Below, piece by piece: positions 833 to 57,807 of a DNA stretch of 59,330 nt (position 1 is the stretch's first letter; each line of letters opens with the position of its first letter). Origin of the DNA: a virus (taxonomy: Duplodnaviria; Caudoviricetes); the IMG/VR virus record IMGVR_UViG_3300010400_000023, positions 1 to 59,330 of that record; one strand, written 5' to 3'. The notes under the pieces are model-generated. The model was given only the letters and a program-made list of their open reading frames with translations, was not told where the DNA came from and ran no database searches. The position numbers and the translations under genes are program-made.

Positions 833-1086
833 CCGACGGTGAGTCAGACGACAATGGCGGTCGATGGTGTGCTGGGCATGGCCGCAGCCACGGCAACCTA
901 TACATCTGTCCGCTGTACAGCGAAGAGATCAAGACGAAGCTCGAGGGCTACAACGCCCAGTTTCGTAACGACCTTCGCGATCCGGCATGGTGTGCTGAGC
1001 AGCGTGCTAAGGGCGTCCCGGAGTGGGGCATCAGGGCCATGGGCGCATTCGCCGGTGTCACTCTGCGATCGGGCAAGCCGTCATGA
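829..1086 (+). CDS. Hypothetical protein with Cys/His motif
   Basis: GTGA/ATGA coupling on both sides; C..H...H....C. Confidence 0.6.
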   Translation: MTDGESDDNGGRWCAGHGRSHGNLYICPLYSEEIKTKLEGYNAQFRNDLRDPAWCAEQRAKGVPEWGIRAMGAFAGVTLRSGKPS

Positions 1087-1634
1087 CCTGGCGCGTAACC
1101 ACGATCATGAGCGGAGGCCAGACCGGCGCTGACCGCGGCGGCATGGACGCGGCGATCCTGCTCGACCTTGACTGGGGCGGCTGGATGCCGAAGGGGCGAC
1201 TCGCGGAGGACGGCATCATCCCGGAGATCTACGCTGCGCGGATGCACGAGGCGGCGCAGCCGAGCATGGCGCTGCGCACCCGGCTCAATATCCAGGACAG
1301 CGACGGGACGCTGCTGCTGTCGTTTCGCAGCGAGTTGGATGGCGGATCGGCGTTCACGGCCGAGGTCGCCGAGCGTACGAAGCGCCCGTACCTGCACCTC
1401 GTGCTGGCCGATGGCGCGCTGGTTCCGCCTGCCGTGCGCGACTCCGTGCTCGAGTGGATCGAGACGGCTCACATCAGCGTGCTCAACGTTGCCGGTCCGC
1501 GCGAGTCGAAGGAGCCGGGCATCCAGGCGGCGGTGCGCGATGCGCTGATTGCGATACTCGAGCCGGTGGTGGTCGAGGCGGAGCGAGCGGTGGTGGTGAC
1601 AGAACCGGAACCCGACGAACACGAGGCCACATGA
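1083..1634 (+). CDS. SLOG-superfamily protein (putative molybdenum carrier / YpsA-like)
   Basis: ISGGQTGADRG-like motif, GGWMPKG, RTRLNIQDSDGTL, LNVAGPRES. Confidence 0.85.
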   Translation: MTWRVTTIMSGGQTGADRGGMDAAILLDLDWGGWMPKGRLAEDGIIPEIYAARMHEAAQPSMALRTRLNIQDSDGTLLLSFRSELDGGSAFTAEVAERTKRPYLHLVLADGALVPPAVRDSVLEWIETAHISVLNVAGPRESKEPGIQAAVRDALIAILEPVVVEAERAVVVTEPEPDEHEAT

Positions 1635-2581
1635 ACGCGATCCCGATTCCGAGGTGTCCGGCGTGTCAGCAGCAGATGCGCGAGAGCCGCGCGACTGACG
1701 TCGTCGAGTGTCGCTGCGGCTTCGAAGTCGACCACGAAACGCTGTACGCCGTAGCTCCGTGTCGTGCACTTGCCGTTGCAGACGGTCGCATGTCAGCGCC
1801 GCGTCCGCGTGGCGCGCGAGGCATCCGCATCTCGGAGAACTTCGGCGAATTGGTCGAACACGCGTGGGATCAGCGATCGGTGAAGCCATCGGAGATGGGG
1901 TTGCCGGCGCGGCAAACGCTGCACGAGGCTGCGCGTAATATCGGTGCACGACTGGGACTCGAGTATCAGGGCGAGGGGAAGGGTCAGTATCTCGTGGTTC
2001 CGGTCACCGGCACGGCGCGTGGTCGGCGCCAACTCCAACGCCAGAAGATCTACGCGTGCGCGCCGCTGAGCTTGGCTCTCGCTGCCGTCGAGCAGATGGT
2101 GCAGGTGATCGCCATGACGCGCGGCCCCGGTAGCTGGTGGAGTACGGGTGGATGCGCCGGCTACTGCGGCGATGGCGATGCGCGAATCGGCTACCTCGAC
2201 GGTGTGCCGCATGTGTTCCTAGCGGCGTACTACTTCCATGACCCGGTTGCGCAGACGCCAGCCGGCCGCATGGAGGCCGTTCTCGAGATGGCGCAGCGTG
2301 GGATGATCAGCACAGAGGAAGCGAAGGCGCTACTCGAGGTGCCGGAGGTGCCCGCCGCCGACCCGCTCGATGCGGTTATCGACGGGGTAACGCTGCGTGC
2401 GTTGCTGGCGTACGACGAATGCGATCGACGTGAGACCATGAGCACCATCGTCCAGCGCAACCACACTCCCGCTCAGCGCGCTGCAGTCAGCGCCCACTGG
2501 TCCGCCGAACTGCGGCTCCGCGTGAAGGCTGATGCGGCGAAGGAGCGGAACCAGGTGACCTACTGCGAGGAGGACGATTGA
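1631..2581 (+). CDS. Zn-ribbon mosaic protein carrying a portal-derived segment and a shared C-terminal domain
   Basis: CPAC..CRC N-terminus; TPAGRMEAVLEMAQRGMISTEEA matches the portal; C-terminus paralogous to 32451-33689. Confidence 0.8.
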   Translation: MNAIPIPRCPACQQQMRESRATDVVECRCGFEVDHETLYAVAPCRALAVADGRMSAPRPRGARGIRISENFGELVEHAWDQRSVKPSEMGLPARQTLHEAARNIGARLGLEYQGEGKGQYLVVPVTGTARGRRQLQRQKIYACAPLSLALAAVEQMVQVIAMTRGPGSWWSTGGCAGYCGDGDARIGYLDGVPHVFLAAYYFHDPVAQTPAGRMEAVLEMAQRGMISTEEAKALLEVPEVPAADPLDAVIDGVTLRALLAYDECDRRETMSTIVQRNHTPAQRAAVSAHWSAELRLRVKADAAKERNQVTYCEEDD

Positions 2582-3126
2582 TGTCCGATCCGTACAGGGA
2601 GCTGTTCGTCGAGACGCCGGCGTCCGAACCGCGGACAGTCGATGACTTGTTCGAGGAAATCGCAAAGCACCCCAGGCCGAAGCCGATCCGCGTCTACATG
2701 CACCCGGCTACGTTCCGGCGGATCGTGATGTACACCAATGCTCGAGTCGATGGTGACGCTGGGTCGGAATCGATATGCTTGCACACCCCATACGGCGTGG
2801 CGCGGCTACATCCCGATCCGGACATCGGAGACCGCGACTACCTGCACTTTGAAGAGGCACCCATGAGCGAACTTGCTGCACTCAGCGCAGAATCTGGACT
2901 CACCGATCTGGAACGGATCCAGCTCCATTGCATCGCACGCCGTAGGCTGAACCAGCCGCAGCCGATGTACCGAATCAGCGACACGGAGTTTGACCTTCAT
3001 GTGTTTCGCTACCCCGCGGTCATTGAGCACGATGCTCGCGGAGCGCACGTTTATTACAGTTTCGGCGCGCTCATGGCAGCGATCTACTCCGGTGGCATCG
3101 GGGGTCTCGAGGTCATCGAGCCGTGA
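2581..3126 (+). CDS. Protein carrying a major-capsid-derived segment
   Basis: VYMHPATF...LHTPYG..LHPDPD aligns with MCP YYLNPVNF...LHTSVG..VYSDPD. Confidence 0.75.
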   Translation: MSDPYRELFVETPASEPRTVDDLFEEIAKHPRPKPIRVYMHPATFRRIVMYTNARVDGDAGSESICLHTPYGVARLHPDPDIGDRDYLHFEEAPMSELAALSAESGLTDLERIQLHCIARRRLNQPQPMYRISDTEFDLHVFRYPAVIEHDARGAHVYYSFGALMAAIYSGGIGGLEVIEP

Positions 3127-4580: not shown

Positions 4581-4966
4581 CCTCCGACACCGTTACCGTC
4601 AACGCGCTCTACAAGGACCTCTACCCCGCGGCTGGCACGCGCATCAAGCAATGGGTCGTCGAGATGGGGCGCGAATCTGCCTGGGAGCGTGAGACGTGCC
4701 CGCGCGTCGATGTACCCTCGCACAACGACAACTGCGGCGGCGGATGCCGCAACGTCGGCTCCACGCAGTGGATGCACCTCAACCATGATAGCTGCTACGA
4801 CTGCAACGATCTTCAGGATGCTACGCGTGAGCGCCCGGACGTCGTCGCATGGCTTGCTGAACGCGCGAAGCGACCGCCGATCACCACTGACCGCGAAGCG
4901 CTGAGCGAAGAGATTGCGCCGGACTGGTCGCTGACCGAGCATCCGATGTTCCGGAGGCTGCGATGA
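4577..4966 (+). CDS. Cys-rich hypothetical protein with MCP N-arm-like start
   Basis: MTSDTVTVNALYKDLYP start; several Cys/His. Confidence 0.6.
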   Translation: MTSDTVTVNALYKDLYPAAGTRIKQWVVEMGRESAWERETCPRVDVPSHNDNCGGGCRNVGSTQWMHLNHDSCYDCNDLQDATRERPDVVAWLAERAKRPPITTDREALSEEIAPDWSLTEHPMFRRLR

Positions 4967-5343
4967 ACCCGTTCCGCGAGCTGTTCGTCGAGGTGCCGCG
5001 TCAGTTGCTTGAGGCTGCCGTCGCGGAAGCGAAGTCGCGCCGCAGGCCGACTGGCGCGTCGTATACGTACGGTCCCAGTTCAGTCATCGAGCGGCTTCGC
5101 AAGCTGCCGTGGGCCATCATCGCGGCTGATTTGTTCGGATGGACCAGTTGTTCGGTCACTCGATCTGCCTACACCGACGACATCATCATCGAAGGCATGT
5201 CGGCATGTCGGCATCGTCAGCGCGTCGAGGTATCGGAGATTGCGGTCATGGCGGCACGAGAGATCCGCGAGATCGTCGACGCGATCGTGCGCGAGGTCGA
5301 TGCGCAGCGCGCGTGCTACTGCGTCCAGGCGGCGCGCCCATGA
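4963..5343 (+). CDS. Hypothetical protein sharing N-terminal P(F/Y)RELFVE.P motif with 2581-3126
   Basis: MNPFRELFVEVP vs MSDPYRELFVETP. Confidence 0.65.
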   Translation: MNPFRELFVEVPRQLLEAAVAEAKSRRRPTGASYTYGPSSVIERLRKLPWAIIAADLFGWTSCSVTRSAYTDDIIIEGMSACRHRQRVEVSEIAVMAAREIREIVDAIVREVDAQRACYCVQAARP

Positions 5344-6211: not shown

Positions 6212-6480
6212 ACCTGCCGCGGCACATCAGCTTGACGATCCAGCACAACCCGCACCGGGGCGTCTACGTGCCGATCGATAAGTGGATCGAGGACTACCTG
6301 CTCTCGGCGACCAGTGGTACCGGATTCACCGCCGACGAGGTCATTGCGCCCGCCGACCATGCGGCCATCCTCGCGACGGGCGAGGTCTGGATTATCAGCT
6401 GGTGTCCCGATACGCCAGTCGGCTCGTGCTGCGTCGTCGCCGCAACGCTCGATCGCGCGCTGGAGTTCGCGAACCAATGA
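6208..6480 (+). CDS. Hypothetical protein
   Basis: ATGA-coupled ORF. Confidence 0.6.
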   Translation: MNLPRHISLTIQHNPHRGVYVPIDKWIEDYLLSATSGTGFTADEVIAPADHAAILATGEVWIISWCPDTPVGSCCVVAATLDRALEFANQ

Positions 6481-6595
6481 CCCTGCATGCCTCAGGCACC
6501 CCTATGCCGCCCTGACCGCTCCATGGGACAGGGAGAAATCCGAGCGCCGCGTCCTCTCACCGGATGCGGCGTGGGCGGCTGAGATCCGCGAGGCG

Positions 6596-8194
6596 GTGCT
6601 TGCCGACTGTCATCCGTTTCAGCGGGACGCCGTCTCGGCGCCACACCGCTATTTCACGTGGCTCGTGGGGCGCGGCGGCGGCAAGACCACCTCCTACAAG
6701 GCGAAGTACCTCATCGGTCTGTCGTCGATCCCCAAGGGCAAGTTCCTGTTTGCCGCGCCGACGCGCGAGATGGCCGCTGACCTGCTCTGGGACCCGCTCA
6801 AGGACAGCTGCGAGCGCCTCGGCATCGAGGCCAGCTGGAACGAGACGCGCAAGGTCTGCACGTTCAAGCGCACCGGAGCGAAGCTCAAGCTCGTCGGCGC
6901 CGACGACAAGAAGGAGATGGGCAAGCAACGCGGTCAGCCGTTTGACGGCGTTGGCGTTGACGAGGTCGCCGAGTTCTTGCCGCACCTGATCGAGTGGTTC
7001 GTGGACCGCATCATCGCACCGCGTCTCGGCGAGCGCGGCGGATGGCTCGGCCTCGCCAGTACCCCGGGTCACGTGCTCCGCGGGTTGTTCTACGAGGCCA
7101 CGCGCCCCGGCTCGGGGCTGCATGTCCCGTTCTCCGAGGCCAGCAAGCACCCGGGATGGGGCGGCTGGGTGTCGCATTCGTGGGGGCTACGGCAAGTCGT
7201 CGAGCTCCCCGACGCGACTCGGAAGTACCCCGCCATCGTGGCGAACTGGCTCGAAGCGCTGCGCATCAAGGCGCTGCGCCAGTGGGGCGACGATAACCCC
7301 ATTTGGCTCCGCGAGTACGAGGGCCGGTGGGCGGCGGATAACGCGCTCATGGTGTTCCGGTACCTGCCGCACCGGGACGGCGCGCCGTGGAACCAGTGGG
7401 ACCCGCCGCGACGCGGGACGATGCAGATCGCTGTGCTGCCGGCCGGTCGCTCGGACTGGCTGTACGTCATCGCGATCGACGAGGGCTTTGCCGATCCATT
7501 TGCTTGCAATGCGTTTGCATTTAGCCCGACGGATCCGACGAGGACGATCTATCACATCTACGGCATGGAGCAGGGCAAGCGTCGCGGCGATGACGTCGAC
7601 AAGCGCCCCGAGGCGGAGCGCGAGAAGATGTACGCGCGCCCGGTGGCGCAGTTGCTCATCGGTGACGCGCTTGACCCGTCGAAGCCCAGTGGGCTCATCG
7701 GCGCGATCGGCACGTGGCCGATCGGCATGGAGGGCGACTGCGGTGAGGCGTTGCTCCTTGAGCTCGCCAACGTCTACGGCATCCGCGTCGAGCGGTTCGA
7801 CCGAACGACGAAGTACAAACTCACGGCGATCGAGGTGGTAAACGGAGACCTCGCCGACGGCAGGATCAAGATCCTGAAAGGCTCCGCTCTCGAGGTGCAG
7901 CTCGGCGAACTGCAGTATGCCGAGGACGACTTCGGCAACCTGAAAGAGAATAAGGCGCAGGCGAACCACTCGAGTGATACTCTTGTAATTGCTCGTAAAA
8001 TCATTGGTAAGCTGCTATCCGCCGGGACTGTCGACGAGCCGTCCGATCCAGCAGCGGCGAAGCGTGTGGCGACGGAACTGGCGCGGCTCAAGGCGATCGA
8101 AGATCCGCCCGATCCCGAGGACAGCTCGCACTCACCCGGATTCGCAGGTATGCTCGTCGGAGGAGACTACTCGGACCCATGGAGTCAGATATGA
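6596..8194 (+). CDS. terL: Terminase large subunit (start uncertain; frame open from 6314)
   Basis: HPFQ motif, Walker A GRGGGKTT, Walker B GVGVDE, ASTPG coupling motif, nuclease AIDEGFADP and NHSSD. Confidence 0.92.
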   Translation: MLADCHPFQRDAVSAPHRYFTWLVGRGGGKTTSYKAKYLIGLSSIPKGKFLFAAPTREMAADLLWDPLKDSCERLGIEASWNETRKVCTFKRTGAKLKLVGADDKKEMGKQRGQPFDGVGVDEVAEFLPHLIEWFVDRIIAPRLGERGGWLGLASTPGHVLRGLFYEATRPGSGLHVPFSEASKHPGWGGWVSHSWGLRQVVELPDATRKYPAIVANWLEALRIKALRQWGDDNPIWLREYEGRWAADNALMVFRYLPHRDGAPWNQWDPPRRGTMQIAVLPAGRSDWLYVIAIDEGFADPFACNAFAFSPTDPTRTIYHIYGMEQGKRRGDDVDKRPEAEREKMYARPVAQLLIGDALDPSKPSGLIGAIGTWPIGMEGDCGEALLLELANVYGIRVERFDRTTKYKLTAIEVVNGDLADGRIKILKGSALEVQLGELQYAEDDFGNLKENKAQANHSSDTLVIARKIIGKLLSAGTVDEPSDPAAAKRVATELARLKAIEDPPDPEDSSHSPGFAGMLVGGDYSDPWSQI

Positions 8195-8894: not shown

Positions 8895-10739
8895 ATGGCG
8901 ACCGACCGCGAGAAACGTCTCTGGTACAACCTACCCAAGAACGAAGCGCACGCTGCGATTCTGGCGTACGTGCAGGGCGTCTCGTCGCGCCAGTCGAGGC
9001 TGTACGAGAAGTTCCTGCGCCTCGACGGGATGTATGACCCAAACTCGGTCCGCACCGAGCTGTACGGTCGGCCGGGCACCGACACCCTCGGGCTCGTCAC
9101 TGAAAACGTAGTCGCGTCCAACGTCGATACGGTGACCGCGGCGATCGCCGCGACCGACGTGCGCGCGCGCTTCATGACCGACGACGGCGACTGGTCAACG
9201 CAACGGACCGCGCGTCACCTCGAGTGGTATGCGGAGGCGCTGTCGAAACAGCTCGACATGGACACGCTATGCCAGCGGGCGTTCAAGTCAGCGGCGATCA
9301 AGGGCACCGGGCTGATTCACGTCTACGCCGACGGCGGAAACAACGTGCGTGCCGAGCAGGTTCCGGTTGACGAGTGCATCGTCGACGAGTCCGAGTCGCA
9401 CAGCGCCCGGCCGCGCCAGATGCACCGCGTGCACCTCGTCGACCGTGATGAATTGAAGATGATGTACCCCGGGCACGACGAGGACATCGACGGCGCGCAG
9501 TACGGCGGTCGTGGTCTGATGAGGCTCTGGAACATCAACAGCCGCAGCGACAACAACGAAGTCGTCGTGATCCACAGCTGGCGGTTGCCGGTTGGTAAGC
9601 GCCCGGGCCGCGAAGTCGTTTCGCTCGACGGCACGACGCTCCTCGATCGGAAGTACGAGAAGACGTTCTTCCCGTTCGCCCGCTTCGTGTGGAGCGAGCC
9701 AGATCAGGGCTGGTACGGCATCGGCGGCGCCGAACGCATCGCCGGTCATCAGCGCGCGCTCAACCGGCGCAACTGGCAGATCGATCGGCTGCTACAGCAA
9801 AACGCCGTGCCGACGACGTACGTCCGGCGCGCGGACGCGAACCTCCGTGCGCAGGTCACCAACGAACTCGGGACAATCGCCGTGGTCAACGGGGAGATCC
9901 CGGTGACCGTGCATCAGCCGGTCGTGAACAAGGAGACGTACTCGTCTCGTGATCAGCTCAAGGCGTCGGCGTTTCAGGAGTTTGGCGTCTCAATGCTGGC
10001 CGCGCAGTCGACGAAGCCTGCAGGCCTCGACTCCGGCGTGGCGCTCCGCGAGTACCGCGACAGCACGACGCAACGGTTTGCGATGCAAGAGAAGGGCTAC
10101 GAAAAGCTCAAGCTTGACGCGATTTGGTTGGCGATCGACGTCTGCAAGGACCTCGGCGCCAAGGCGCCGCAGATGATGCGGCGCACGAAGTTCGGAGCGC
10201 GTAAGCTGCCGTGGTCCAAGGTGGATATGGGCGATGTCCGCGTGCAGATCGCCGCGGCGTCGACGATGTCACGCACACCGGCCGGTCGCATGCAGACCGT
10301 GCTCGAGTGGGCACAGGCCGGAGTGATTTCGCAGGACGAGGCTCGACGCCTGATGCGGCATCCAGACCTTGAGCGGTCGATGTCCATCTACACCGCGGCG
10401 CTCGAAGCGGTGGAGCACGCCATCGAAGAGATCGAGGACGGCGCAGTCCTGATGCCGGAGCCGTTTGACAACCTGCAGATGATCGTCTGGCGCGGCCAGA
10501 TGGAGTACCTGAAGATCTCCACCGAGGACGCCCCCGAAGAGGTTCTTGAGGCGTTGCGCCAGTATGTCGTGCAGGCAGCCTGGATGATCGCGCAGCAGGA
10601 CGCACCCGCCGCGAACGAGAACGCCGGCGCAGCGGCCCCAGCGCAGCCTGAGATGCCGCCGCTGCCCGGCGCTCCACCCGTCAACATGCCCGCCGTTGCC
10701 GCGCTGTCACCGCAGTCGATGCAGCTCCGGGCTGTCTAG
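8895..10739 (+). CDS. Portal protein
   Basis: 614 aa, position between terL and scaffold/MCP; GTG, FFPF..F.W, GWYG.G, FGVS motifs. Confidence 0.88.
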   Translation: MATDREKRLWYNLPKNEAHAAILAYVQGVSSRQSRLYEKFLRLDGMYDPNSVRTELYGRPGTDTLGLVTENVVASNVDTVTAAIAATDVRARFMTDDGDWSTQRTARHLEWYAEALSKQLDMDTLCQRAFKSAAIKGTGLIHVYADGGNNVRAEQVPVDECIVDESESHSARPRQMHRVHLVDRDELKMMYPGHDEDIDGAQYGGRGLMRLWNINSRSDNNEVVVIHSWRLPVGKRPGREVVSLDGTTLLDRKYEKTFFPFARFVWSEPDQGWYGIGGAERIAGHQRALNRRNWQIDRLLQQNAVPTTYVRRADANLRAQVTNELGTIAVVNGEIPVTVHQPVVNKETYSSRDQLKASAFQEFGVSMLAAQSTKPAGLDSGVALREYRDSTTQRFAMQEKGYEKLKLDAIWLAIDVCKDLGAKAPQMMRRTKFGARKLPWSKVDMGDVRVQIAAASTMSRTPAGRMQTVLEWAQAGVISQDEARRLMRHPDLERSMSIYTAALEAVEHAIEEIEDGAVLMPEPFDNLQMIVWRGQMEYLKISTEDAPEEVLEALRQYVVQAAWMIAQQDAPAANENAGAAAPAQPEMPPLPGAPPVNMPAVAALSPQSMQLRAV

Positions 10740-12128: not shown

Positions 12129-13325
12129 GTGGCTTCAGCTTCAACTCTCACTACAGTCGCATTCATTTTCAAGAAGACGTACGGCGACGGCATCGGCGAT
12201 GCCGCGTCGCGCGACCATCCGTTCTTCTACAACATCCGCAAGGTCAACAAGTTCCGCGGCGAGAGCTTCAAGTACAGCGTCAAGTACGGCAATCCGCAGG
12301 GCATCGGCGCGACGATCGCGCTCGCTCAGGCCGGCGCCGCATCGAGCAAGGGTCTGCAGTTCGAGGCGGTCCGCTTCAAGAAGTTCGGCCTCATCACGCT
12401 CGACGGTGAGTCGCTCATGGCCAGCGATGGCGATGACGGCGCGCTCGTCGAGCTGGTCACGACCGAGTCCGACGGCATCCTCGCGGAGCTCGTCGACTCG
12501 CTGGCGTACGACCTGTACCGCGACGGCACGGGCAAGCGTGGCAAGCGCCTCAGCGCATCGACGAACGTCATCACCCTGACGGTCGCCGACGACGCCCGTA
12601 ACTTCAAGGTCGGCATGACCGTGATGGCGTCTCCGAACGCCAACGGCTCATCGCCCCGCGCCGGTACCACCACGGTGGCCGGCGTCGACGAAGACGCGGG
12701 TACGGTCACGCTGACCTCGGCAGCGGCGATCACGTCGTTCGCCGATGCCGACTTCTTGTTCCGCAGCGGCGACCCGACGACCTGCGTTGAGGGTCTCGAG
12801 GTCTGCACGCCGCTCACCGCCCCGACGCCCGGCGACTCGTTCCGCACCAAAGATCGCAGCGTCGATGCGCCTCGCCTCGCCGGGTCGCGCGTCAACAACC
12901 TCAACAACGTCATCGAGGAGAACGCCGGTGATGTCGCGGTCAAGCTGAACCAGCGCGGCCGGAAGGCGCGTGAATACTACCTGAACCCCGTCAACTTCTT
13001 CCAGGTCGTCAAGCGCCAGGGCGCCAAGGTCGAGTACCAGGGCGGCGGCGGTACGGCGGATATCTTCTTCGAGACGTTCAGCCTCCACACGTCAGTCGGG
13101 ACCCTCAAGGTCTACTCCGATCCGGACTGCCCCATCGACCGCGGTCGCGTGGTCAACCCCGATGACCAGTACCTCCGCATCCTCGGAGAGTACCCGCACG
13201 TGATCATGGACGATGGTCAGCGCTCGCTGCGCCAGACCGCCGACGACGGCATCGAAGTTCGATGCCGTGCCATGGGCAATCTCATCCAGAAAAACACGGC
13301 GTCGCAGGGCGTCCACTCGATCTGA
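12129..13325 (+). CDS. Major capsid protein
   Basis: 398 aa, strong codon bias, GAGGA RBS, LAYDLYRDGTG and DPDCP motifs, position. Confidence 0.85.
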   Translation: MASASTLTTVAFIFKKTYGDGIGDAASRDHPFFYNIRKVNKFRGESFKYSVKYGNPQGIGATIALAQAGAASSKGLQFEAVRFKKFGLITLDGESLMASDGDDGALVELVTTESDGILAELVDSLAYDLYRDGTGKRGKRLSASTNVITLTVADDARNFKVGMTVMASPNANGSSPRAGTTTVAGVDEDAGTVTLTSAAAITSFADADFLFRSGDPTTCVEGLEVCTPLTAPTPGDSFRTKDRSVDAPRLAGSRVNNLNNVIEENAGDVAVKLNQRGRKAREYYLNPVNFFQVVKRQGAKVEYQGGGGTADIFFETFSLHTSVGTLKVYSDPDCPIDRGRVVNPDDQYLRILGEYPHVIMDDGQRSLRQTADDGIEVRCRAMGNLIQKNTASQGVHSI

Positions 13326-30226: not shown

Positions 30227-30529
30227 ATGGTTCGCGTCGGCTCCCTGGCCCTTGAGCTCGAGTGTGCGGTCGACGACTTGTCGATTGCGCATCAGAAGGT
30301 CGACGCGTTCCTCGAGTCGTTGTTCGTAGGATGGCGACCCCGATTCCCGGTAAGCCTCGGGTGGCGTCGAACCGGGCCATGGGAGATCGAGGTCTGGGAT
30401 GCGATCGACTCACCAGCCGCGCGTGATGCGCTGGCTCGTGCCGGGTGGTCGACGGTGACGCTGCACCCGCATCAGGCAGCGAAGTTCCTGACCTGTGACT
30501 GCCTGCCGCAGCGAACGGAGATTACGTGA
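30227..30529 (+). CDS. Hypothetical protein
   Basis: ORF coupled to endolysin. Confidence 0.55.
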   Translation: MVRVGSLALELECAVDDLSIAHQKVDAFLESLFVGWRPRFPVSLGWRRTGPWEIEVWDAIDSPAARDALARAGWSTVTLHPHQAAKFLTCDCLPQRTEIT

Positions 30530-31257
30530 TCTCACCGGTGATCGTAGATGTGTACCCCCGCGACAAGCCCGTCGACTGGACTGCGTATATCGCCGCTGGC
30601 CATCCCTTCGTCGGCGCGGTGTTCAAGCTCTCGCAGGGGCTACACTACGAGTACGCGGGCTGGGCGTATCAACAGCGGCAGCCGTTCGTGCGCTCACCGC
30701 GCTACGGAGTCGACTTGCTTGACGGCTTCTACCACTACCTGGATTTCGGCTCCGACGGCACCCGCCAAGCCGATTGGTTCTGGGGGCTCATGGAGAGGAT
30801 CGGCGGCGAGCAGATCGGCACCCTATGGGCCATGGTCGACGCCGAGCGCGGCGGGCAGACGGTCGCGCTCACCAAATCCCGCGTGGAGGGCTGCATCGGC
30901 GCGTTCGCCGAGCGCTACCAGCAGCTCAGCGGGCGGACCGCCACGCTGTACGGTGGCGAGTTGCTGCGCGCGATCGGTGCGCACGGCAGGTACGGATGCG
31001 GCCGGTCGTCGGTCGCGCTGTACGCCAGCGAGCTCCACGGACTGCGAGAGACCACGGCGCAGTTCCTGGCGCGCACGGGGACCGACCTCGCACACCTGCT
31101 CAGCTGGCAGTACCAGGGCACCGAGGCGCCGAGCGGGCCGGCCGGGTATCCGCGGCTGATCCCGGGCGGCGGTGCAGTGACGTACGACATCAGCGCGCTG
31201 ACGCTGCCCGGCGGACTCGAGGCGCTGAGGTCACAGCTGTGGGCGGAGCGACCGTAG
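30526..31257 (+). CDS. Endolysin, GH25 muramidase-like
   Basis: IVDV, FKLSQG, GFYHY, QADWF, VDAE, WQY motifs. Confidence 0.82.
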   Translation: MISPVIVDVYPRDKPVDWTAYIAAGHPFVGAVFKLSQGLHYEYAGWAYQQRQPFVRSPRYGVDLLDGFYHYLDFGSDGTRQADWFWGLMERIGGEQIGTLWAMVDAERGGQTVALTKSRVEGCIGAFAERYQQLSGRTATLYGGELLRAIGAHGRYGCGRSSVALYASELHGLRETTAQFLARTGTDLAHLLSWQYQGTEAPSGPAGYPRLIPGGGAVTYDISALTLPGGLEALRSQLWAERP

Positions 31258-31466: not shown

Positions 31467-31664
31467 TTATCGCGTCGACCCTCTCGCAACGGCTAGCCCG
31501 AGCGCCTCACGCGCGAGGTCGCTCCAGGTCTGCCCCTGCTTGTCGGCGAGAGCGAGCTGGTCGGCGAGCTCTTCGGCGGTGATACGCACCCGCTTCGTCA
31601 CCGTCCGCGGCTTGGCCGCGCGGGGCTGGGCGAGACCGGCGATGGGGTTGCGGCGGCGGGTCAT
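31467..31664 (-). CDS. Ribbon-helix-helix (CopG-like) regulator
   Basis: KRVRIT strand then helices, G.TWSDLAREAL. Confidence 0.7.
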   Translation of the reverse strand: MTRRRNPIAGLAQPRAAKPRTVTKRVRITAEELADQLALADKQGQTWSDLAREALGLAVARGSTR

Positions 31665-32450: not shown

Positions 32451-33689
32451 TCAGTCATCGTCCACCTGTACCATCACGGTCAGCTTTGGCTTGGCCGTCT
32501 CGGCTACGCGAGCGCGGAGTTGCGCCGACCAGTGAGCCGACACCGCGGCACGCTGGGCCGGAGTGAATTCTGAAGACATGCGCGGAAACCACGAATCGCA
32601 TCCCTCTCGACGACAGACCTCATCGCGAAAAATCAGCGCCTTTAACACCTCGCCGTCGATGACTACGTCGAGCGGGTCAGCCGGCACCGCGCACGCCGCG
32701 CATCTCCACGGATGCCGGATCACGCCATCGACCGGCGTGGTCGCCGAGCACTGCGCTCCGTCGCGGATGCCCTGGCAGCGGAGTCTGGACAGGGGCGGCC
32801 CCATCTCGTCCATCAGCTTGCGCAGCCGTTGCCCGTATTCTGTCGCCTGGCTCTCGGTGATGCGGTCGTCGGTGAAGGGGATCATCTGGGCCGGAGGCGG
32901 CATCGGTGCCTTGAGCATCGCTTCGGCGCGGGAAACGCCGAACACTTCGTAAGCCTCGCGTTTGAGTAGGTCACACTCCGCCAGTAACGACGATGGAATC
33001 GGCTCCATGGTGCGAAACAGTTCGCGAGCCTGATCGTCGCATCGCTTCAGCATCGTGTCGACCGCGGCCTCGGTCTTCTCGCGCAGCTGCGCCACGAACG
33101 CGTCGCTTTGCCGCAGCGCCTCGCGGTCGACCTGCACCGGCTGGTAGCGCTTGGGATTCCGGGCTGTAGGCTCCACAAACGGCACCCACGTCCCGAGGTG
33201 CTCGCGCTGGAAGTCGGGCCGATTACGTACCTGCCAAGTCGATGCGTCGCTGTCGTTCGCCACATGGTCCGTGTAGACCACGCAGACCTTCCCACGCTCG
33301 ATGCCGTTCCGATATAGAACGATCTTCTGCTTGAGACCGAGATGATCGCGGACGTCGGAAGCCATGTCACGGCAGTAACTACTCAAAACCGACGGCCCGC
33401 CGTCGATGTAGAGCGTAACGCCTCCCATCAACTGGCATTGCGCGAGCGCTTCGAGTAGCCCGCGCATTGTCCGGCCGGTACGGCGCGGCGGCGCAGGCGA
33501 CAGCGCGGCGTACTCTGCCCACGGCCGCAGCCCCATGCGCTGGCGGTAGGACTCGGCGATGGCGATCACGTCGGTCGGCGGCGAGTCCTCGGGGAAGTAG
33601 TTCCCGATCGTTACGCCGCACCCGTGGCAGTTGTAGAGGTCGTTCGCGCTCGGTCGGATGTCAGCGCTCTGGCAGTGGGGGCAGTTCAT
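32451..33689 (-). CDS. Zn-ribbon mosaic protein with terminase-, capsid- and portal-like segments
   Basis: AGGAG RBS; CPHC/CHGC; RRTGRT, FQREHLGTW, DREAL..S, LKREAYEVFGVS; shared C-terminal domain. Confidence 0.8.
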   Translation of the reverse strand: MNCPHCQSADIRPSANDLYNCHGCGVTIGNYFPEDSPPTDVIAIAESYRQRMGLRPWAEYAALSPAPPRRTGRTMRGLLEALAQCQLMGGVTLYIDGGPSVLSSYCRDMASDVRDHLGLKQKIVLYRNGIERGKVCVVYTDHVANDSDASTWQVRNRPDFQREHLGTWVPFVEPTARNPKRYQPVQVDREALRQSDAFVAQLREKTEAAVDTMLKRCDDQARELFRTMEPIPSSLLAECDLLKREAYEVFGVSRAEAMLKAPMPPPAQMIPFTDDRITESQATEYGQRLRKLMDEMGPPLSRLRCQGIRDGAQCSATTPVDGVIRHPWRCAACAVPADPLDVVIDGEVLKALIFRDEVCRREGCDSWFPRMSSEFTPAQRAAVSAHWSAQLRARVAETAKPKLTVMVQVDDD

Positions 33690-33807
33690 CGGGTCTCCTG
33701 TAGTTGTAGCTTCTGTGCCGACGGGGCGGCAGAAATACTGAGGTCAGCGGGCGCGGCACACCGGTTGCACGAGATCGACCCATCTGTGCGCAGTTCCACG
33801 GTTCCAC

Positions 33808-33854
33808 GCGGACTGAAAATCCGCGTGTCGTTGGTTCAATTCCGACCCTGGGCA
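33808..33854 (+). mobile_element. attP: attP core: 3' half of tRNA-Phe(GAA)
   Basis: Anticodon arm GCGGA-CTGAAAA-TCCGC, T arm GTTGG-TTCAATT-CCGAC, acceptor 3' strand CCTGGGC-A; no 5' half; abuts integrase stop. Confidence 0.9.
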
Positions 33855-34952
33855 CTATCGTTTCGATATCTTGCGACGAGTTTCGGTCGCTGTCGGAGCG
33901 TCATTCGTCTCATTGGTATCTCGTGATCCACGGTCGTCTTGCACACGGGCTGCACACGGCTTCCCGCCGGGCAATCGGCTCACGGCTTCGGCGAGCGTGT
34001 CCTCGGACAGGCGACCGTAGACGAGATCGACCATCTTGGTGCTCGTGTGGCCGAGCAGGCGTGCCACCACGGCGCTGTCCGTCTTCTGGTTCTTGAGCCA
34101 ACTGGCGAACGTCCGGCGCAAGTCGTTGGGCGTCACCCTGGGGACCTTGGCGAGATCGGCTGCACGCGCCAGATCGCGGCGGACGTTGCGCCATCGAGTG
34201 ACGATCGGCCCGAGCAAGCGCTTCGGCGCCCCCGCGGCCAGGGCTTCGAGTAGGCGGGGCGCGATCGGTACGATACGCCACCGCGATGTGCGCTTGGTAC
34301 CTGGGACGCGCATCTTGGCCCGTCCAAAGTCGATATGCTCCCACCTGATGCGCTCGACCTCGCCGAGCGACAGACCGCCGAACATCGCAAGCATCACCCA
34401 CAGGCGGCGGCGAACGGCGATCTTCGCGAGGAAGCGCTCGGCCTGATGCTCGTCGAGCCAGACCTCCTTAGGCCGGTAGACCACGCGAACCTTGGGCACC
34501 ATGTCCTCGATCGACCCAGACCACAGACCACGCTTGCGGGCTTCGGCAAGCGCCCGACGCAGCACCACCAGCTCCTTGTGGATGGTGCCGTTGGCGGCGG
34601 TTTCGCTCTGGCGTGTCGCGATGTAGCGCATCACGGCATCGCGGGTGAGCGTGCCGACCTCGGTGTCGCCGCCGATCAGCCGGGTGAGGTGATGCCCCTT
34701 TTGGGCGTACGCTGTTGCGGTGGCTGCGGCGCGCTCGATGGCCACTACCGCGAGCATGTTGCCGATCGCATCCCTCAGCGTGTGGTGCGAATGCGTGGCC
34801 GGATCGGCCGATCCCAGTTCGAGCTTGCGGAGCTTGGCGCGAGCGACTTGCTGATCGCGCGTGCGGAGCGACTGCCGCCGAGCACGGCCTCGGATGTCAG
34901 TCCAGTAGCCGTGCCACGTGCCGCCTGGCTTGCGTTGATAGATTCTTCCCAC
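33855..34952 (-). CDS. int: Tyrosine recombinase (integrase)
   Basis: Arm-binding N-terminus, SAM-like core, GTK, NDLRRTFASW, LLGH, catalytic Y (DLVY); next to attP. Confidence 0.9.
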   Translation of the reverse strand: MGRIYQRKPGGTWHGYWTDIRGRARRQSLRTRDQQVARAKLRKLELGSADPATHSHHTLRDAIGNMLAVVAIERAAATATAYAQKGHHLTRLIGGDTEVGTLTRDAVMRYIATRQSETAANGTIHKELVVLRRALAEARKRGLWSGSIEDMVPKVRVVYRPKEVWLDEHQAERFLAKIAVRRRLWVMLAMFGGLSLGEVERIRWEHIDFGRAKMRVPGTKRTSRWRIVPIAPRLLEALAAGAPKRLLGPIVTRWRNVRRDLARAADLAKVPRVTPNDLRRTFASWLKNQKTDSAVVARLLGHTSTKMVDLVYGRLSEDTLAEAVSRLPGGKPCAARVQDDRGSRDTNETNDAPTATETRRKISKR

Positions 34953-35128
34953 GGTGCCTCTGTTCTGGATGCGAGATATCGAGCAAGCGCCTCCTCGGGG
35001 ACCCGCAACAGGCTGCCGACGCGCACGTGAACACACGAGCGGGCCACGCGGTACGCGGTCGCACGCGAACATCCGAGACGCGCGGCGATGTCTGCGGCGG
35101 TGAGGTAGACGATGTGCGGACGGGTCAC
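34775..35128 (-). CDS. xis: Excisionase-like HTH protein
   Basis: YLTAADIAARLGCSRATAYR...RVG..LRV. Confidence 0.8.
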   Translation of the reverse strand: MTRPHIVYLTAADIAARLGCSRATAYRVARSCVHVRVGSLLRVPEEALARYLASRTEAPWEESINASQAARGTATGLTSEAVLGGSRSARAISKSLAPSSASSNWDRPIRPRIRTTR

Positions 35129-37746
35129 GTCGCCTTCGCCCTCTCCAGCAACACCGCCAGCAGCTTCGCCTCCTCGTCGCTGCCCTTGCGCGCGCAGCCA
35201 TAGGCCCAAGCGATCCGCTTGAGGCTAGCGTTGGATGGGTCGGCGAGGATGCCGGCAATGCCGGTGGCTGTGGAGGTCATGGCTTGTTCTTCTCCTTCGC
35301 CCAGTCCCGGGCGTCGCTCCGCCTGGCGAACACGGCGATCGGCCACTCGTCGTCGCGCTCGGTGTCGTAGACGGCGTGGTCCGGCTTGCCGTTGAGGGCG
35401 AGGCCGATGTGATGGTCGGGGCGGACGACGTAGCGGCGGGTCATGACGCCGCCACCGGCGATCGCAGGATGACGTAGAACTCCGTGTTGCCGCACTCGTT
35501 TTCGCCGCACGCAGGCTCGGGCTCGTTCGGCTCAACGGCGCGAGCAAAGAACATCCGCCGGTTGCAGTCGCATCCGGCGTTGCCATCGGTCCACCAGAAC
35601 TCGTCTTTCCACGTGTTGCAGGGCTTCCAGCCGGGGCGGTCGATGCGTTGCACACCGTCGGAGACACGCACGATGACGACCTGCATCTCGTCGGTGTCGG
35701 CGGTTCCGGGCGGGCGCTGGATGATGTCGCGGGTTCGGGTCATAGGGGCCGATCGCTTTCCGGCGGCATGGGCTCGACCTCGTACTGTGTTGCCGCCGCA
35801 GCTCGGAGCAGCAGCCACATGCACACAGCGCGTGGCAGGTGCAGACGCTCGGCGACATCATGCGTGGTGAGCCAGAGGCGGAGGCGGATGGTCATGGTTT
35901 CATCCTTCGGTACTCATCGATCAGCCGGCGGCGCTCGTCGAGCGTGGCCGACAGTTTGATCTCGGCTTCCTGGCCGATCTGATCGTTGAGTCCGGTGTGC
36001 TGCAGGCACATCGTGTCGAGGTCCTCGATGACGATCGTGAGGTCGGCGATGCGTACGGCGACTATGGCGCGGTCGGTCATGGCAACGTCTCCAGATCCAC
36101 GAGCGTCTGATGCATGACGTCGAAATCACGCTCGCTGTCGCCCGCACGACTGTCCACGTACGCCCGCACTGCCCGCTGCAGCTTGAGCATCGCGCGAATC
36201 GTCTCGAGGTCGACGAACGCTCGCGGTACGGTGCTCTCAGGGCCGAGGCGGTAGCGGAGGCGGTCGAGGGCGGTCACGTGAACCACTCCGCGCGCAGCGC
36301 CGGGTGTGACTCGATCAGGCGGTACGCGGCTTCGACGCAAGACTCCCCGTAGCCGTACGGGTCGACAGAATCGCAGAGCACGGCATGGCGCAGTTCGAGG
36401 GCAACACGCAGCGGCTCACCGGTTCTCTGTCCGATCAGGTCATCGACGTACGTCAAATTCCGCGCATCGCTCACGCACATGAGCACCTCGATCACCTGGC
36501 GTTTCTCGGCGAGCGTCATGATTCACCTCCAAGGTCCGCATGCCGCGCCACGCTAGCTGCGACGTCGTGGCGGGTGTTGTCGTCGGAGGCGTGCTCGGTG
36601 GCGGCGATGGCGGCGCGCAGATGATCCTCCACGCGATCCGCCTCCGCCTGCCGCTCGCGTACCTGCCGCGGTGTCAGACCGATGACCTCGGGTGCGCCGG
36701 CGCGGATGATGCGGTCGTCGGGGTTCGCGTGCACGAGCTTGAGCTCGTCGGCCAGATCATCGTGCTCCACGATCGCCCGAGCCAGCCAACCGGAGTACCA
36801 ATGTGACGACATGAGAGCGGAGTCATCTTCATCGACCCGCTCGAAGTCCTCCCACCCCCAGCGCTCCGCTGTCATGGCCGAACCCGGACAACCGCCCAGC
36901 CATGCCTCGATCGAGTGGACGGCCAGTTCAGCGGCGCGCAGCTCGTCGTACGAGTTGTATGTGTCTGCGGCTGGCCCCATCCCCACGGTCTCCTTGCACC
37001 GGCGACATCGCCAGCGCTCGACGACGCAGCCGCGGAACCGATCGTCGTAGGAATCAGGCTCGATCATCTTGTGGCGGCAGGTCCCCATCAGCTCTCTCCT
37101 TGCTTCGCGCCAGTAGCGGCGTACGTGGTTAGCTGCCCGATGTATCCAGCGGCCCAGTCAGCGCGGCCGACGGCCGTGTACCAACTGGCCATCCAGGCCA
37201 CGACGACATGGTGCGGGAGCATCTGGCGCTCGGCGGGTTCGACGGTCACGACGGCACCCCATCAATCGCAGCTTCGACCGCATCGGCCAGCTTCGCAGCC
37301 TCATCAGCCGCAACGTCGATCTCCCTGCAGGTCAGCAGGTCTGCAGCCGCGGCTGTCAGCGCCCGCAGCCGGATCATCGTCGTGTCGTGGCGGCGCTCTG
37401 TCGCGGTCAGCTGGCGTGCGAGGTCGGCGGCTCGGTCGGACATGGACTGGAAGTCGCGGCGGTACTGGGCGAGCTGCCGACGTGCGGTGGCGAGCGTGTC
37501 GGTGGCCTCGCGGAGGTCGGCTTTGAGGCGGTCGTTGGTGGCCTCGAAGCGCTGGCGGTCGCTGATGTTCAGGCCGGTGGCGACGTCGAGACGGTCCATG
37601 TACAGCCGCATGTCCTCGCACATTGCGGAGATGTGGCCGAGGAGATCGTCCGCCACCGCCCAGTTACATGTGGCCGAGCGCTGGTCGACTCGGCGGCGAA
37701 TGCCAGACAGTTCCTCGGGGCTGAGAAGCTTGGGTTCGGGCTTCAT
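35125..37746 (-). other. Cluster of small early hypothetical genes (35125-35280, 35277-35444, 35441-35743, 35892-36080, 36274-36519, 36516-37088, 37246-37746)
   Basis: Overlapping stop/start-coupled ORFs; 35441-35743 has WW.DGN.GCDCNR; 37246-37746 is coiled-coil. Confidence 0.6.
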
Positions 37747-48641: not shown

Positions 48642-51600
48642 ATGACGACCGCCGTCATGATGTTGGTGCTCGGAGCCGTCTGGCTCGTCGCGCTCCGCTG
48701 GGTCGTCTACGAGCTGCCGCTGGGCGAGCGGGCCGCGCGAGTTGGCTGCGCGGTCATCGTCGGCGCGAGCGCGGGGCCACTGCTGCCGCTCGAGTGGATC
48801 GTCGTCGGTAGCGTCTGGGCGGTGGTCGTCGCGAGTCAGGCTGACCGGCGCGGAGATGCACCGATGGCGCGGCAGGTGCGGAGGTGAGCCGCGCTCTCTC
48901 CGTCTCTCAGCGGCGCACTAACGCGGCCTGGCTCCGCGCCGCGCTGAAAGACCTCGCGTTCGAGCACGCACTGCACGATTTCGATACCTCGCGCGTCGTC
49001 CACGCCCTGACTGCGATTGCAGACGGGCGCGAGTGGCGCAGCGCATAACCCCGGCGCTCGGGGGAGCGCCACACAAGGACCCCATGATCATCGGCATCGC
49101 TACATTCGTCCCGCGTCTACTCCTCGCTCTCATCGTCGTCGCTGTGGCCTTCGTGGTGCGCGCTGCACTGGTTACGAGGCGGATGTGAGCCGTCAGCGTC
49201 TTTGGCTGTATGCAGTAATCGCGGCGTTCGTCACAACGCTCATCAACCTCGGGGCCGCCTCGTACCACGTCGCCAAATCACGCGGCGAAAACGAGCGCCT
49301 GCGCGTTGAGCTGCGGCGCTGCGTCGGCGCGCAGGCGGAGCAGACGCCATGACCGCCGACTACGACCCCACCGAGGCCCCACTTGTACCGCAAATCACCA
49401 TCGACGATCGGCCAGGTCTCACGGTGTGCAATACCTGCGGAACCGATAACGGCACCGTCCGCTGTCTGTCACTTCGGTGGTCTGATCCGAGCTTGAGGCC
49501 ACGCCACGGCGGGGGTACAGCAGTCGCGCTTTGCAGGACGTGCCGCTCCGCGGTGCGCGACCTACTGGCCAAGGAGGCACCATGACCGCCGACTACGACC
49601 CCACCGAGGCGCATCGGTTGATTGCAGAGGCGCGCGAGGACGATGCGAGGATGACACCGGCCCCTTGGTCCTGCGACGAGGAAATCGCCGTGGTGTACGG
49701 AAACGCCGATGACCACGACGGCGTAGAGGTCGCCTGCCTCGGCGAGGAAGCGAACAACTACGACGGCGACGGGCTTGGCATCGCCCGTTTCCGCAACAAC
49801 CTGCCAGCCTTCGCCGACCAACTCGAGGCGGCGGGGAGGGAGGTGGAGCGTATTCCAGACCTGCAAGCGGCGATCGGGTACGAGATCGAGAAGCGCGACG
49901 CGTTCGAGCGCCAACGCGACTCCCTGCGCTCGCAAATCCAGAGCGAGATCCATGCTCATGCAGCTAGTTGCGCTAGGGAGCTTGCTGCGATTCGAGAGCG
50001 CGACGCTCTACGCAAGGAGGTGGAGCGGCTGAACGCCGACTATGCGACCAGAGGCGAGCACGTGCTCGAGGTCGAAGATGCGGCGACATCAGCGGAACGC
50101 GAGCGCGACTCCCTGCGTGCTGCCCTCGTCAAGGCCAAGGACGAGCATACCGGCGACGGCTTGGCGTGGTTCGAGCGGGAACACGCGTTGACCATGGAGC
50201 GCGACTCCCTGCGCGCCGAGGTGGAGCGGCTTGAAGCGCTCCGAGACACATGGAGCGAGGGGGCGGTTGCCGTTGCTGCCGAGCGTGACTCCCTGTGTCG
50301 GCAACTCGAGGCGGAGGGGAGTATTCGCGAGTCGCATATCGAGACTGCGACTCGAACCATCTCAGGACTGACCGCCGACCTGACAGCAGCCCAGCAAGCC
50401 GTGGTGCAGGGAGCGGAGTCACTAGCTGCAGCGCAGCGAGAGATCGCTGGCCTCCACGCCCTTCTGAAATCCAACGCTGAGGTCTACGAGGCCACCAAGC
50501 GCGATCACGCCTCCGGTCGAATGCTGCTCAAGGCAACGACGCAGGAGTTGGTTGCCATGCAGCGGAGGATTGCGGAGTTGGAGTTGGATGTCGCAGCGCA
50601 GCGTGACAGCAAGCAATTCTGGACGCAGGATTCCGCTCTGGCGCACGCCGCCCTCCGCGCCATCTTGCCGGTGTACCGGGCGGGGCATGATTGGGTGTAC
50701 AGAGGGCAGGGATTCAGGTCGGCATTGGTCGCTTCGATTCACACTGCCCGCGCCGCCATCACCCCGGAGATCGCCGCCGTGCTGGCGGGACTGGAGCGTG
50801 GCGAGTGACCCCCATTAGCCGAACCGTCTCCTGGACCGTCACCGCCACCGTGATGTGCGGCGACGCCGAATGCTCGTGGTGTGGCACACGCACGCCGCCA
50901 CCGCCGAATGACGTCGTCATCGCATGGGTGCGCAAGCATCCGACCGTGCACTGGCTCTGGCCGAATGCCGACGCTCGCGACGGCTGGCAACCGGAAGGAT
51001 GGGACCACAACCGCGGCGAGTGGCTGTGTCCACCGTGCGCCGACGCTGAGAACGAAGCAACGAAGGCCGCGCATGCGAAGCGACGCGCGGAGGTGAAGCC
51101 ATGACCCGCCGCCTCCAACCCGCCTTCCTCTCTGTAGCGATGGTCCTCTTCGCCGTCGAGGACATCACGCTCGGTCATCCCATCCGAGCCGCCATCTGCG
51201 GCGTGTTCGCGTTGCTCAACATCGCCGCGGCGCTGTGGCCCGTGGACGAGGATTACTGACATGACCGCCACCATCCTCACCCGCAACCGCGGCGCTTGCC
51301 TGCGCTGCAACTACGACAACTGCCCGCACGGCGTCACCACCGCGCAGATCCAGGCCAAGCTGATCCGCGGCTACGCCGCCTCGGTCGGCTGGATCCGCGG
51401 CCTCGACCCGGGCAGCGGCTCGCCTGACACGGGGGGGCGACCGGCGAATCGCCGCTGGGACATCTGCCCGGAGCACGCCATCATCGAGCGCGAACGAGCG
51501 AAGGCCCGGAAGCTCGCGGCCGACGAGCGCCGCAAGGAGCGGGCGAAGCCGCCGACGCCGGAGGTCATGGCCGAGCGCGCGCTGCGGCGCCGAACGAAGG

Positions 51601-57468: not shown

Positions 57469-57807
57469 TTGCACATGCGACAAGATTACACTGACCCTGT
57501 GCCCGCTTCTGGCGAGCGCCAGGACTCAGCCGCGCAGTCATCGGACCCGCTCGCGCCACGCTCACCAGCAGCAAGCCAGACACGAAATCGCCGCGGCCAG
57601 CAGCTATCACCAGGAGCCGTTCGGCGGGCCTCGCCAGCCGACTGGGTCGTGGTGTCGGTGAGTGTCGCACCCGCTGACTTGGCTCAGTGGGATGCCAAGG
57701 TCGCCGCGTGCCGCGCGGCTGGCGTGTCGATGTCCCGCAGCCGCCTGATCGCTATCGCCCTGGCCGCTCTCGACCTCGAGGCGGTCATCCTCGGCGGTGG
57801 GCGATGA
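57469..57807 (+). CDS. RHH-like regulator
   Basis: VSVSV...DL..WD..V.......MSRSRLI..AL. Confidence 0.55.
   Translation: MHMRQDYTDPVPASGERQDSAAQSSDPLAPRSPAASQTRNRRGQQLSPGAVRRASPADWVVVSVSVAPADLAQWDAKVAACRAAGVSMSRSRLIAIALAALDLEAVILGGGR

Follow-up and report, generated by a model that had tools for sequence, protein, structure and literature searches.

Two genes of an uncultured temperate phage, here called ORF A and ORF B, are members of a previously unnamed family of phage accessory proteins that have a constant C-terminal domain in common. We propose, with a probability of about 0.4, that this domain may dock to, or act as an adaptor for, a single partner that evolves slowly, and that it is fused to exchangeable modules that take part in an arms race. 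The main argument for a slowly evolving partner is that the domain is conserved above the level of the large terminase (TerL), the portal and the capsid protein.

The phage and its two family genes

The window, by which we mean the whole stretch of DNA analysed, is a complete IMG/VR virus record of the linear class with a length of 59,330 bases and a GC content of about 65%. CheckV estimates the completeness of this record at 66%, which may be an underestimate for 59 kb since the IMG/VR relatives of the phage measure 55-59 kb, with terminal repeats in three of them. Besides the hallmark genes listed in Table 1, Pfam and PHROGs recognize a SU10-type adaptor, tail proteins, recombination genes, a helicase and a VapE-type primase. 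The putative attP core next to the integrase gene resembles the 3' part of a tRNA with a GAA (Phe) anticodon loop, as read by eye; it scores 21.7 bits against the Rfam tRNA model, under the gathering score of 29, and ARAGORN reports no whole tRNA at this fragment. A search of 50,697 GenBank phage records gave no match to the first 8 kb of the window, to ORF B or to the portal, and the TerL of the window matches two uncultured records only, at about 30% identity. The phage lineage is thus one without a cultured relative. As far as seen, the family occurs in this one lineage, whose members are uncultured, temperate soil phages of a podovirus-like kind with a high GC content and genomes of about 58 kb, and a search of prokaryote genomes added one relative among 185,579 species genomes. 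Among sequencing runs, the DNA of the window is present in one soil metagenome, possibly its source, and with a small share in a second run; the runs listed include none of RNA.

The most likely start of ORF A is the ATG given in Table 1, which overlaps the stop codon of the upstream cpYpsA gene (by ATGA) and yields a protein of 316 aa rather than the 375 aa that would be read from position 1454, from which the frame is open. The protein collection contains the shorter form (P0027), which is also the one conserved in relatives. In-frame GC at the first, second and third codon positions of ORF A is 0.71, 0.50 and 0.75, and that at the third position of ORF B is 0.79. The cpYpsA gene directly upstream of ORF A is a circularly permuted SLOG gene; its homologues in five related loci (41-60% identity) lie at most three genes from the family gene in L003, L010, L011 and L018 and about 2 kb upstream of it in L006. 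On the other side, the gene at 2578-3126 starts at the ORF A stop codon. This gene and a second one of the pre-terminase block (4963-5343; both on the plus strand) begin with the same motif, (D)P-[YF]-R-E-L-F-V-E-[TV]-P, and their 5' ends form a 30-nt direct repeat of 83% identity (2590-2619 and 4969-4998; family D15).

Elsewhere in the window, a 65-aa gene in the island between lysin and attP (31467-31664, minus strand) has by eye the look of a ribbon-helix-helix regulator, and Pfam returns no match for it at E<=1e-3. A 207-aa protein encoded at 57687-58307 (plus strand) ends in a sigma-70 region-4 helix-turn-helix (Pfam PF04545) and has NCBIfam matches to region 4 of RpoD and MzaA that all fall far under the whole-protein cut-offs. 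Homologues of this protein occur in L015 and L018, and it could be a late regulator or a small terminase. Additionally, a 44-nt direct repeat of 89% identity (49334-49377 and 49567-49610, plus strand; family D7) covers a ribosome-binding-site-like GGAGG, an ATG and the first codons, which suggests two adjacent frames with the same start region.

Table 1. Features of the window that are discussed in the text, with positions in the numbering of the window.
Feature	Position	Strand	Remarks
cpYpsA (SLOG) gene	1023-1634	+	Pfam PF12694, E 2.6e-46
ORF A, 316 aa	1631-2581	+	Family member in accessory slot upstream of terminase; ATG 1631
Zinc-ribbon-like CxxC...CxC motif of ORF A, N-terminal	1655-1717	+	Read from translation
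ORF A module M1, alpha/beta (about aa 60-205)	1808-2245	+	Motifs GPGxWWS, GGVPHVxLxAxYFHDP
ORF A module M2 (aa 206-240)	2246-2350	+	Portal-like, SHOCT-like 35-aa segment
Constant C-terminal domain of ORF A (aa 243-316 + stop)	2357-2581	+	
Large terminase (TerL)	6314-8191		Pfam and PHROGs
Portal	8895-10736		Pfam and PHROGs
Portal segment (aa 458-492) copied in ORF A M2	10266-10370	+	
Major head protein	12129-13322		Pfam and PHROGs
GH25 lysin	30526-31254		Pfam and PHROGs
Constant C-terminal domain of ORF B (aa 337-412 + stop)	32451-32681	-	
ORF B, 412 aa	32451-33689	-	Second family member, in cargo island between lysis genes and attP/integrase
tRNA-like fragment, probable attP core	33788-33854	+	Between ORF B and integrase gene
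Tyrosine integrase	33855-35258	-	Pfam PF00589, E 4.1e-15

Conservation of the shared domain

The first-pass annotation of this DNA had claimed a domain of about 75 aa shared by the C-termini of the two proteins, and BLASTP finds it at exactly those coordinates, with 42 identities in 77 positions (55%, E 8e-17; nucleotides 2357-2578 against 32454-32681). The 14-aa exact match and the acidic tails that had been pointed out are likewise there: the segment TPAQRAAVSAHWSA is identical in both proteins, ORF A ends in EEDD and ORF B in VDDD. A tblastn search found no third copy in the window. An alignment of the DNA shows synonymous changes across the whole identical block, including a switch between AGC and TCG serine codons, and over a 20-codon block the two copies differ at a proportion of 0.79 of synonymous (pS) and 0.13 of nonsynonymous sites (pN). 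Two copies in inverted orientation in one genome could in principle be a DNA-level repeat, the result of a recent duplication or of gene conversion, or a matter of chance. However, the synonymous sites are saturated and a repeat finder reports no DNA repeat at either copy, from which it follows that the similarity is kept by selection on the protein. Hundreds of independent homologues, in a family of 411 proteins, also speak against such an origin, and we reject it as having a negligible probability. For the 20-codon core, the medians over 136 pairs of loci are 0.44 for pS and 0.16 for pN, and these values point to long-standing purifying selection rather than recent transfer.

The rate at which the domain changes can be compared with that of the hallmark proteins of the same phages. 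Among the distant loci, 12 still have one hallmark gene or more, and in these the identity to the window is 44-63% for the domain as against 24-28% for TerL, 24-30% for the portal and 23-29% for the capsid protein; L003 is the one closer phage in the comparison. As measured by amino acid identity, the domain is about twice as conserved as these three proteins in the same phage pairs.

Extent and structure of the family

A profile made from the two copies was searched against 1.84 billion cluster representatives and retrieved 411 proteins at E<=1e-3, 288 of them at E<=1e-10. We examined the best 150 of the 411 together with 28 others. A word-based search with the ORF B domain gave 25 more proteins of 227-488 aa. 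The 163 proteins in which the conserved helix could be placed are 73-488 aa long. The distance from the start of this helix to the C-terminus is 30-64 residues in all of them and 30-44 residues in 158. At least three of the last eight residues are acidic in 150 of the 163.

An alignment of 50 sequences (A3) yields the pattern P-x-DPLD-x-x-x-DG-x-x-L-R-x-L-L, followed by a variable loop and then by T-P-A-Q-R-A-A-V-S-A-H-W-S-A-[EQ]-L-R-A-K-V, a V-x-V-x-like strand and the acidic tail. The layout of the domain is a hairpin and helix (DPLD..DG.xLR.LL), a nearly invariant helix (TPAQRAAVSAHWSA(E/Q)LRAKV), a short hydrophobic strand and the tail. Over three helical turns of A3 nearly every residue is conserved, a pattern that would suit a helix with one face packed and the opposite face bound. 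The AF2 model of ORF B aa 332-412, computed with A3, is confident (mean pLDDT 82.7) and consists of a beta hairpin and three helices (residues 18-30, 37-43 and 46-67 of the 81-aa query), with a tail that is unstructured and of lower confidence.

The domain had also been called novel in the first-pass annotation, and the libraries agree. No family in Pfam, PHROGs, PADLOC or NCBIfam matches it in ORF A or ORF B (there are sub-threshold zinc-ribbon and SHOCT-like matches only), and no PDB chain matches it by sequence or profile. Scans of the relatives covered the longer members, with the short ones left out; Pfam at E<=1e-4 names no family in 115 of 116, the exception being a borderline HAS-barrel match, and PHROGs names none in 118 of 119. 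The predicted fold has no significant match either. With the domain model as query, Foldseek returns a single PDB row at E 9.7 and nothing from BFVD at E<=1e-3, and the exhaustive aligner VIA gives as its best match Rpp, the terminase-redirecting protein of E. coli phage-inducible islands (PDB 6hn7; Z 4.6, 56 residues aligned, rmsd 2.2), and then an anti-sigma domain (Z 4.5), scores that are in the chance range for helical arrangements. For the domain the ESM Atlas holds low-score rows only, a comparison of the domain profile with the portal profile gives a probability below 1%, and a literature search with the peptide SAHWSA found nothing related.

Exchange of N-terminal regions

The N-termini of 155 family members fall into 50 similarity groups (single-linkage BLASTP, E<=1e-4), of which 39 are singletons and one is a group of 84 linked by chains of shared modules; four unparsed proteins and five with N-termini shorter than 30 aa were left out of this grouping. 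For N-termini that occupy one syntenic slot, none of six pairs gives a BLASTP alignment, and in these the C-terminal domains are 45-57% and the flanking genes 30-80% identical. Consequently, the supposition that a constant C-terminal module stands behind variable partners describes the family well, and the opposite outcome, a domain of a known family with constant partners, is not what we find. Zinc-ribbon-like motifs (CxxC...CxxC) are present in 49 of 163 N-termini. We had presumed that the N-terminal module of the P0006/P0115 type is baseplate-J-like, but reject this because neither Pfam, with a threshold as loose as E<=1, nor PHROGs supports it.

ORF A, a zinc ribbon followed by a module of about 150 aa, has the best-populated type of architecture that we aligned (A4, 16 rows), and all relatives of this type also finish in the constant domain. 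Its CxxC...CxC motif is aligned in 9 of the 16 rows, and the N-terminus has sub-threshold zinc-ribbon matches only in Pfam. Module M1 is common to ORF A and P0165, P0095, P0010, P0160, P0151, P0009 and others. When the AF2 model of ORF A (mean pLDDT 85.7) is used in an exhaustive fold search, the best matches are encapsulins and HK97-fold capsid proteins, over residues 80-207; for M1 the VIA scores range from Z 6.9 (119 residues aligned, rmsd 3.9) down to about 4, and HK97-fold chains make up most of the top 50 rows, all of which stay below Z 8, the caution line of the tool. Foldseek finds no match for the ORF A model at E<=1e-3, and the ESM Atlas has no usable feature match for aa 55-210. A comparison of the A4 profile with that of the capsid protein of the lineage (A5) by hhalign gives a probability of 0.6%, and a PDB profile search with the ORF A family and portal profiles returns chance-level rows only (E 0.68 or more). 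An HK97-like fold of the front half of ORF A is a weak lead that comes from the predicted model.

ORF B begins with a zinc ribbon (its first 33-43 aa) that it has in common with P0028 and P0029. It shares only these residues with the two, and P0028 also ends like ORF B, behind a different and shorter middle. A word-based search with ORF B aa 1-330 found no relative except a truncated copy of ORF B itself.

At the other extreme, 5 of 163 members are nearly stand-alone domains with fewer than 30 residues before the domain; such short forms may result from gene calls that were cut short on metagenome contigs. In L005 (9413-10231, plus strand) an in-frame TGA (9947-9949) splits the domain from a 178-aa upstream open frame. 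The gene could be split at this point, or the TGA could be a nonsense mutation or a candidate for read-through. Because of these near-stand-alone members and the TGA of L005, it is possible that the domain may act on its own.

The portal-like segment of ORF A

The M2 segment of ORF A and the corresponding segment of the window portal are 51% identical, with 80% positives, over 35 aa (E 5e-8), and the similarity is limited to this segment and does not make ORF A a portal protein. The portal residues G464, G476, L486, P490 and D491 do not vary among eight portals of the lineage. An HMM built from seven segments of this kind hits the portals of L003 (1.6e-14) and L006 (1.9e-3) and, beyond its seeds, seven further database members and the gene in the L003 slot. 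In all, the motif is found in 13 proteins besides ORF A, namely 12 database members and the L003 slot gene. When the 155 N-termini were compared by tblastn with the window and the 16 related loci described below, two hits fell outside family genes and both were to portals. The portal protein has no significant sequence or profile match in the PDB, so the motif is without a structural mapping. Part of M2 also resembles the SHOCT-like family PF22746 through a segment before the domain, G-x-I-[ST]-x-[ED]-E-A-x-x-L-L, that is present in the portal as well; however, the Pfam score (aa 217-236, E 3.2e-4) is 20.6 bits against a cut-off of 27, and the similarity concerns the M2 linker and not the constant domain.

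The first-pass annotation had proposed that the fragments in front of the domain serve as baits. This stands to the extent that ORF A and the 13 further proteins carry the 35-aa portal-like motif, and it does not extend to ORF B, in which no portal-like fragment was found. Judged from the sequences, the portal motif is the sole support for the view that the fragments come from phage proteins, and the motif belongs to a minority of members.

Location of the family genes

When IMG/VR was scanned with A3, 17 of 49 pattern matches could be confirmed, and these gave 16 loci, whose genes were assigned by GC3-based calls and BLASTP against the window genes. In 12 of the 16 loci the family gene lies 1-6.5 kb upstream of a TerL homologue on the same strand. 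L003 has its family gene near a TerL that was called on the other strand, and L005 ends before any TerL. In the remaining two (L009 and L014) the family gene is downstream of the integrase and converges on the tail and lysis genes, like ORF B. In G004 and G009 the one copy that was found is on the integrase side. There are thus two alternative accessory islands, and the phage of the window fills both. Ten records were searched whole, 7 of the 10 being estimated as at least 94% complete and three of those seven having terminal repeats; a single copy is present in nine of them, and the tenth has a second, weak match. Each related phage keeps one family gene and this phage has two.

The surroundings of the gene differ between subgroups. 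For example, cpYpsA and a zinc-ribbon gene are recurrent neighbours in one subgroup, and a second subgroup (L004, L007, L012, L016/L017) has five conserved flanking gene families.

Discussion

In the adaptor reading that we favour, the constant domain would dock to one conserved partner. Since the hallmark proteins of these phages are half as conserved as the domain, a conserved host machine would be a likelier partner than a virion protein. The N-terminal modules (zinc ribbons, the portal-motif copy and orphan folds) would then give changing specificities in conflicts between phage and host or between phages. The case for an adaptor is drawn from architecture and conservation, however, with a fold model that is small, helical and free of informative matches, and the high conservation could also reflect self-association or nucleic-acid binding. 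Additionally, the members with hardly any residues before the domain and the TGA of L005 are not what an adaptor would lead one to expect.

The family is new, yet its architecture is familiar. At the C-terminus of poxvirus ankyrin/PRANC proteins, a small conserved, helical domain of an F-box-like kind docks to a host machine that is itself conserved; their N-termini are variable and bind targets, and a virus has several copies. These proteins are the closest analogue for the mode of action that we propose, although they have no sequence or fold relation to the phage family, in which we infer the binding of a host machine. The MuF polymorphic toxins of temperate phages, as portrayed in passages of PMC5576092, are likewise a phage family near head-morphogenesis genes in which a constant domain has exchanged partners, and they are read there as a product of conflict. 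In MuF toxins, however, the constant MuF domain is N-terminal and the variable toxin C-terminal, whereas the constant part is C-terminal here and a quarter of the size of MuF; moreover, Pfam finds no MuF domain (Phage_Mu_F) in ORF A, ORF B or 116 relatives, and these show no recognizable toxin/immunity pair. The polyvalent proteins of phages and conjugative elements, as far as the relevant portions of PMC5512222 describe them, are also modular conflict proteins of mobile elements that are subject to domain shuffling, with 2-15 known enzymatic or binding domains strung together. In contrast, 115 of 116 relatives in the present family are without a known domain, and its members are short (73-488 aa) with one fixed terminal domain.

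Other roles for the domain have to be weighed against docking to a host machine, and two of these look toward the virion. The domain could be a targeting tag that docks variable cargo to the portal, the capsid or the packaging machinery for injection with the DNA, for which the capsid-targeting sequence of T4 internal proteins and the MuF domain of polymorphic toxins offer comparisons. Such a role is suggested by a slot in the block that leads, on the same strand, into the terminase-portal-scaffold-capsid genes (12 of 16 loci), by the portal-motif copies in ORF A, 12 database members and the L003 slot gene, by the M1 fold, which is closest to HK97-fold capsids and encapsulins (Z 5.1-6.9), and by the fact that the best, if insignificant, match of the domain is to a terminase-redirecting protein. 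A docking surface should, however, co-diverge with its target, and a domain whose conservation is about double that of portal, TerL and capsid protein does not do so; the genes in the integrase-side island (ORF B, L009 and L014) are on the strand opposite to the structural genes, and the fold scores are all under a meaningful level, with no profile similarity to the capsid protein or the portal. We consider a virion tag unlikely. Far less probable still is that the family resembles small terminases (TerS), with a variable DNA-recognition N-terminus and a conserved C-terminus that binds TerL. The location upstream of TerL, the zinc ribbons in 49 of the 163 N-termini and a top (insignificant) fold match to Rpp, which mimics TerS, would all be in keeping with this. 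But the family gene is not directly upstream of TerL, being separated from it by 3-8 genes in every locus, one of the two copies in this phage is beside the integrase and the one copy found in G004 and G009 is on the integrase side, TerL is far less conserved than the domain, and neither Pfam nor PHROGs finds a TerS family in ORF A, ORF B or the relatives.

The remaining readings place the activity in the domain itself or in what is fused to it. The domain could be the active part and inhibit, as a small protein module, a host factor, with sensors, regulators or decoys in front of it; the integrated-decoy idea, transferred to the phage, comes under this reading. The near-stand-alone forms, the TGA just before the domain in L005 and the extreme conservation of the core helix would then be readily understood, with the portal-motif copy of some members as a bait or decoy. 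However, neither a catalytic motif nor a membrane segment is present, defence and anti-defence models give no match, the short forms are possibly truncated metagenome gene calls, and one class of fragment only, with two hits outside family genes among 155 N-termini, resembles a phage protein in sequence; this reading too is doubtful. Self-association, in which the domain would form dimers or oligomers and so multimerize its fusion partner, appears distinctly improbable to us. An invariant helix that is rich in small residues (AAVSAHWSA), a pattern common in tight helix-helix packing, and conserved on both faces would suit it, but an oligomerization helix alone rarely needs such invariance across phages that are 24-30% identical in their hallmark proteins. 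Plant NLR immune receptors carry integrated decoys, in which a copied fragment of the target is fused to a constant module, and ORF A does carry a copied portal motif. An integrated-decoy sensor of this kind had been offered as an alternative in the first-pass annotation and is not borne out, as no NTPase, STAND or defence-family domain is present in ORF A, ORF B or 116-119 relatives (Pfam and PADLOC yield no P-loop/STAND family), no signalling domain accompanies the motif and the genes are on the phage and not on the host. It is conceivable, if only with a low probability, that the decoys work on the side of the phage, with conserved surfaces of virion proteins, such as the portal motif and perhaps a capsid-like fold, copied and fused to a domain that would dock to a conserved host machine. 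Sensors of bacterial immunity for portal, capsid or terminase would then be captured and neutralized, or alternatively the assembly of competing phages would be poisoned, and the swapping of N-termini would track the sensors met in each host.

The preferred reading, an adaptor for a conserved partner, is a tentative one, and the family that it seeks to explain is well delimited. A large family, with hundreds of clusters at 50% identity, is now defined that no current library names. Its proteins have a fixed, strongly selected end and an exchanged front, and they sit in two islands where temperate phages keep their conflict genes. The portal-motif copies raise the idea of mimicry of virion proteins. 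With the domain as a single handle, one partner could serve hundreds of orphan proteins.
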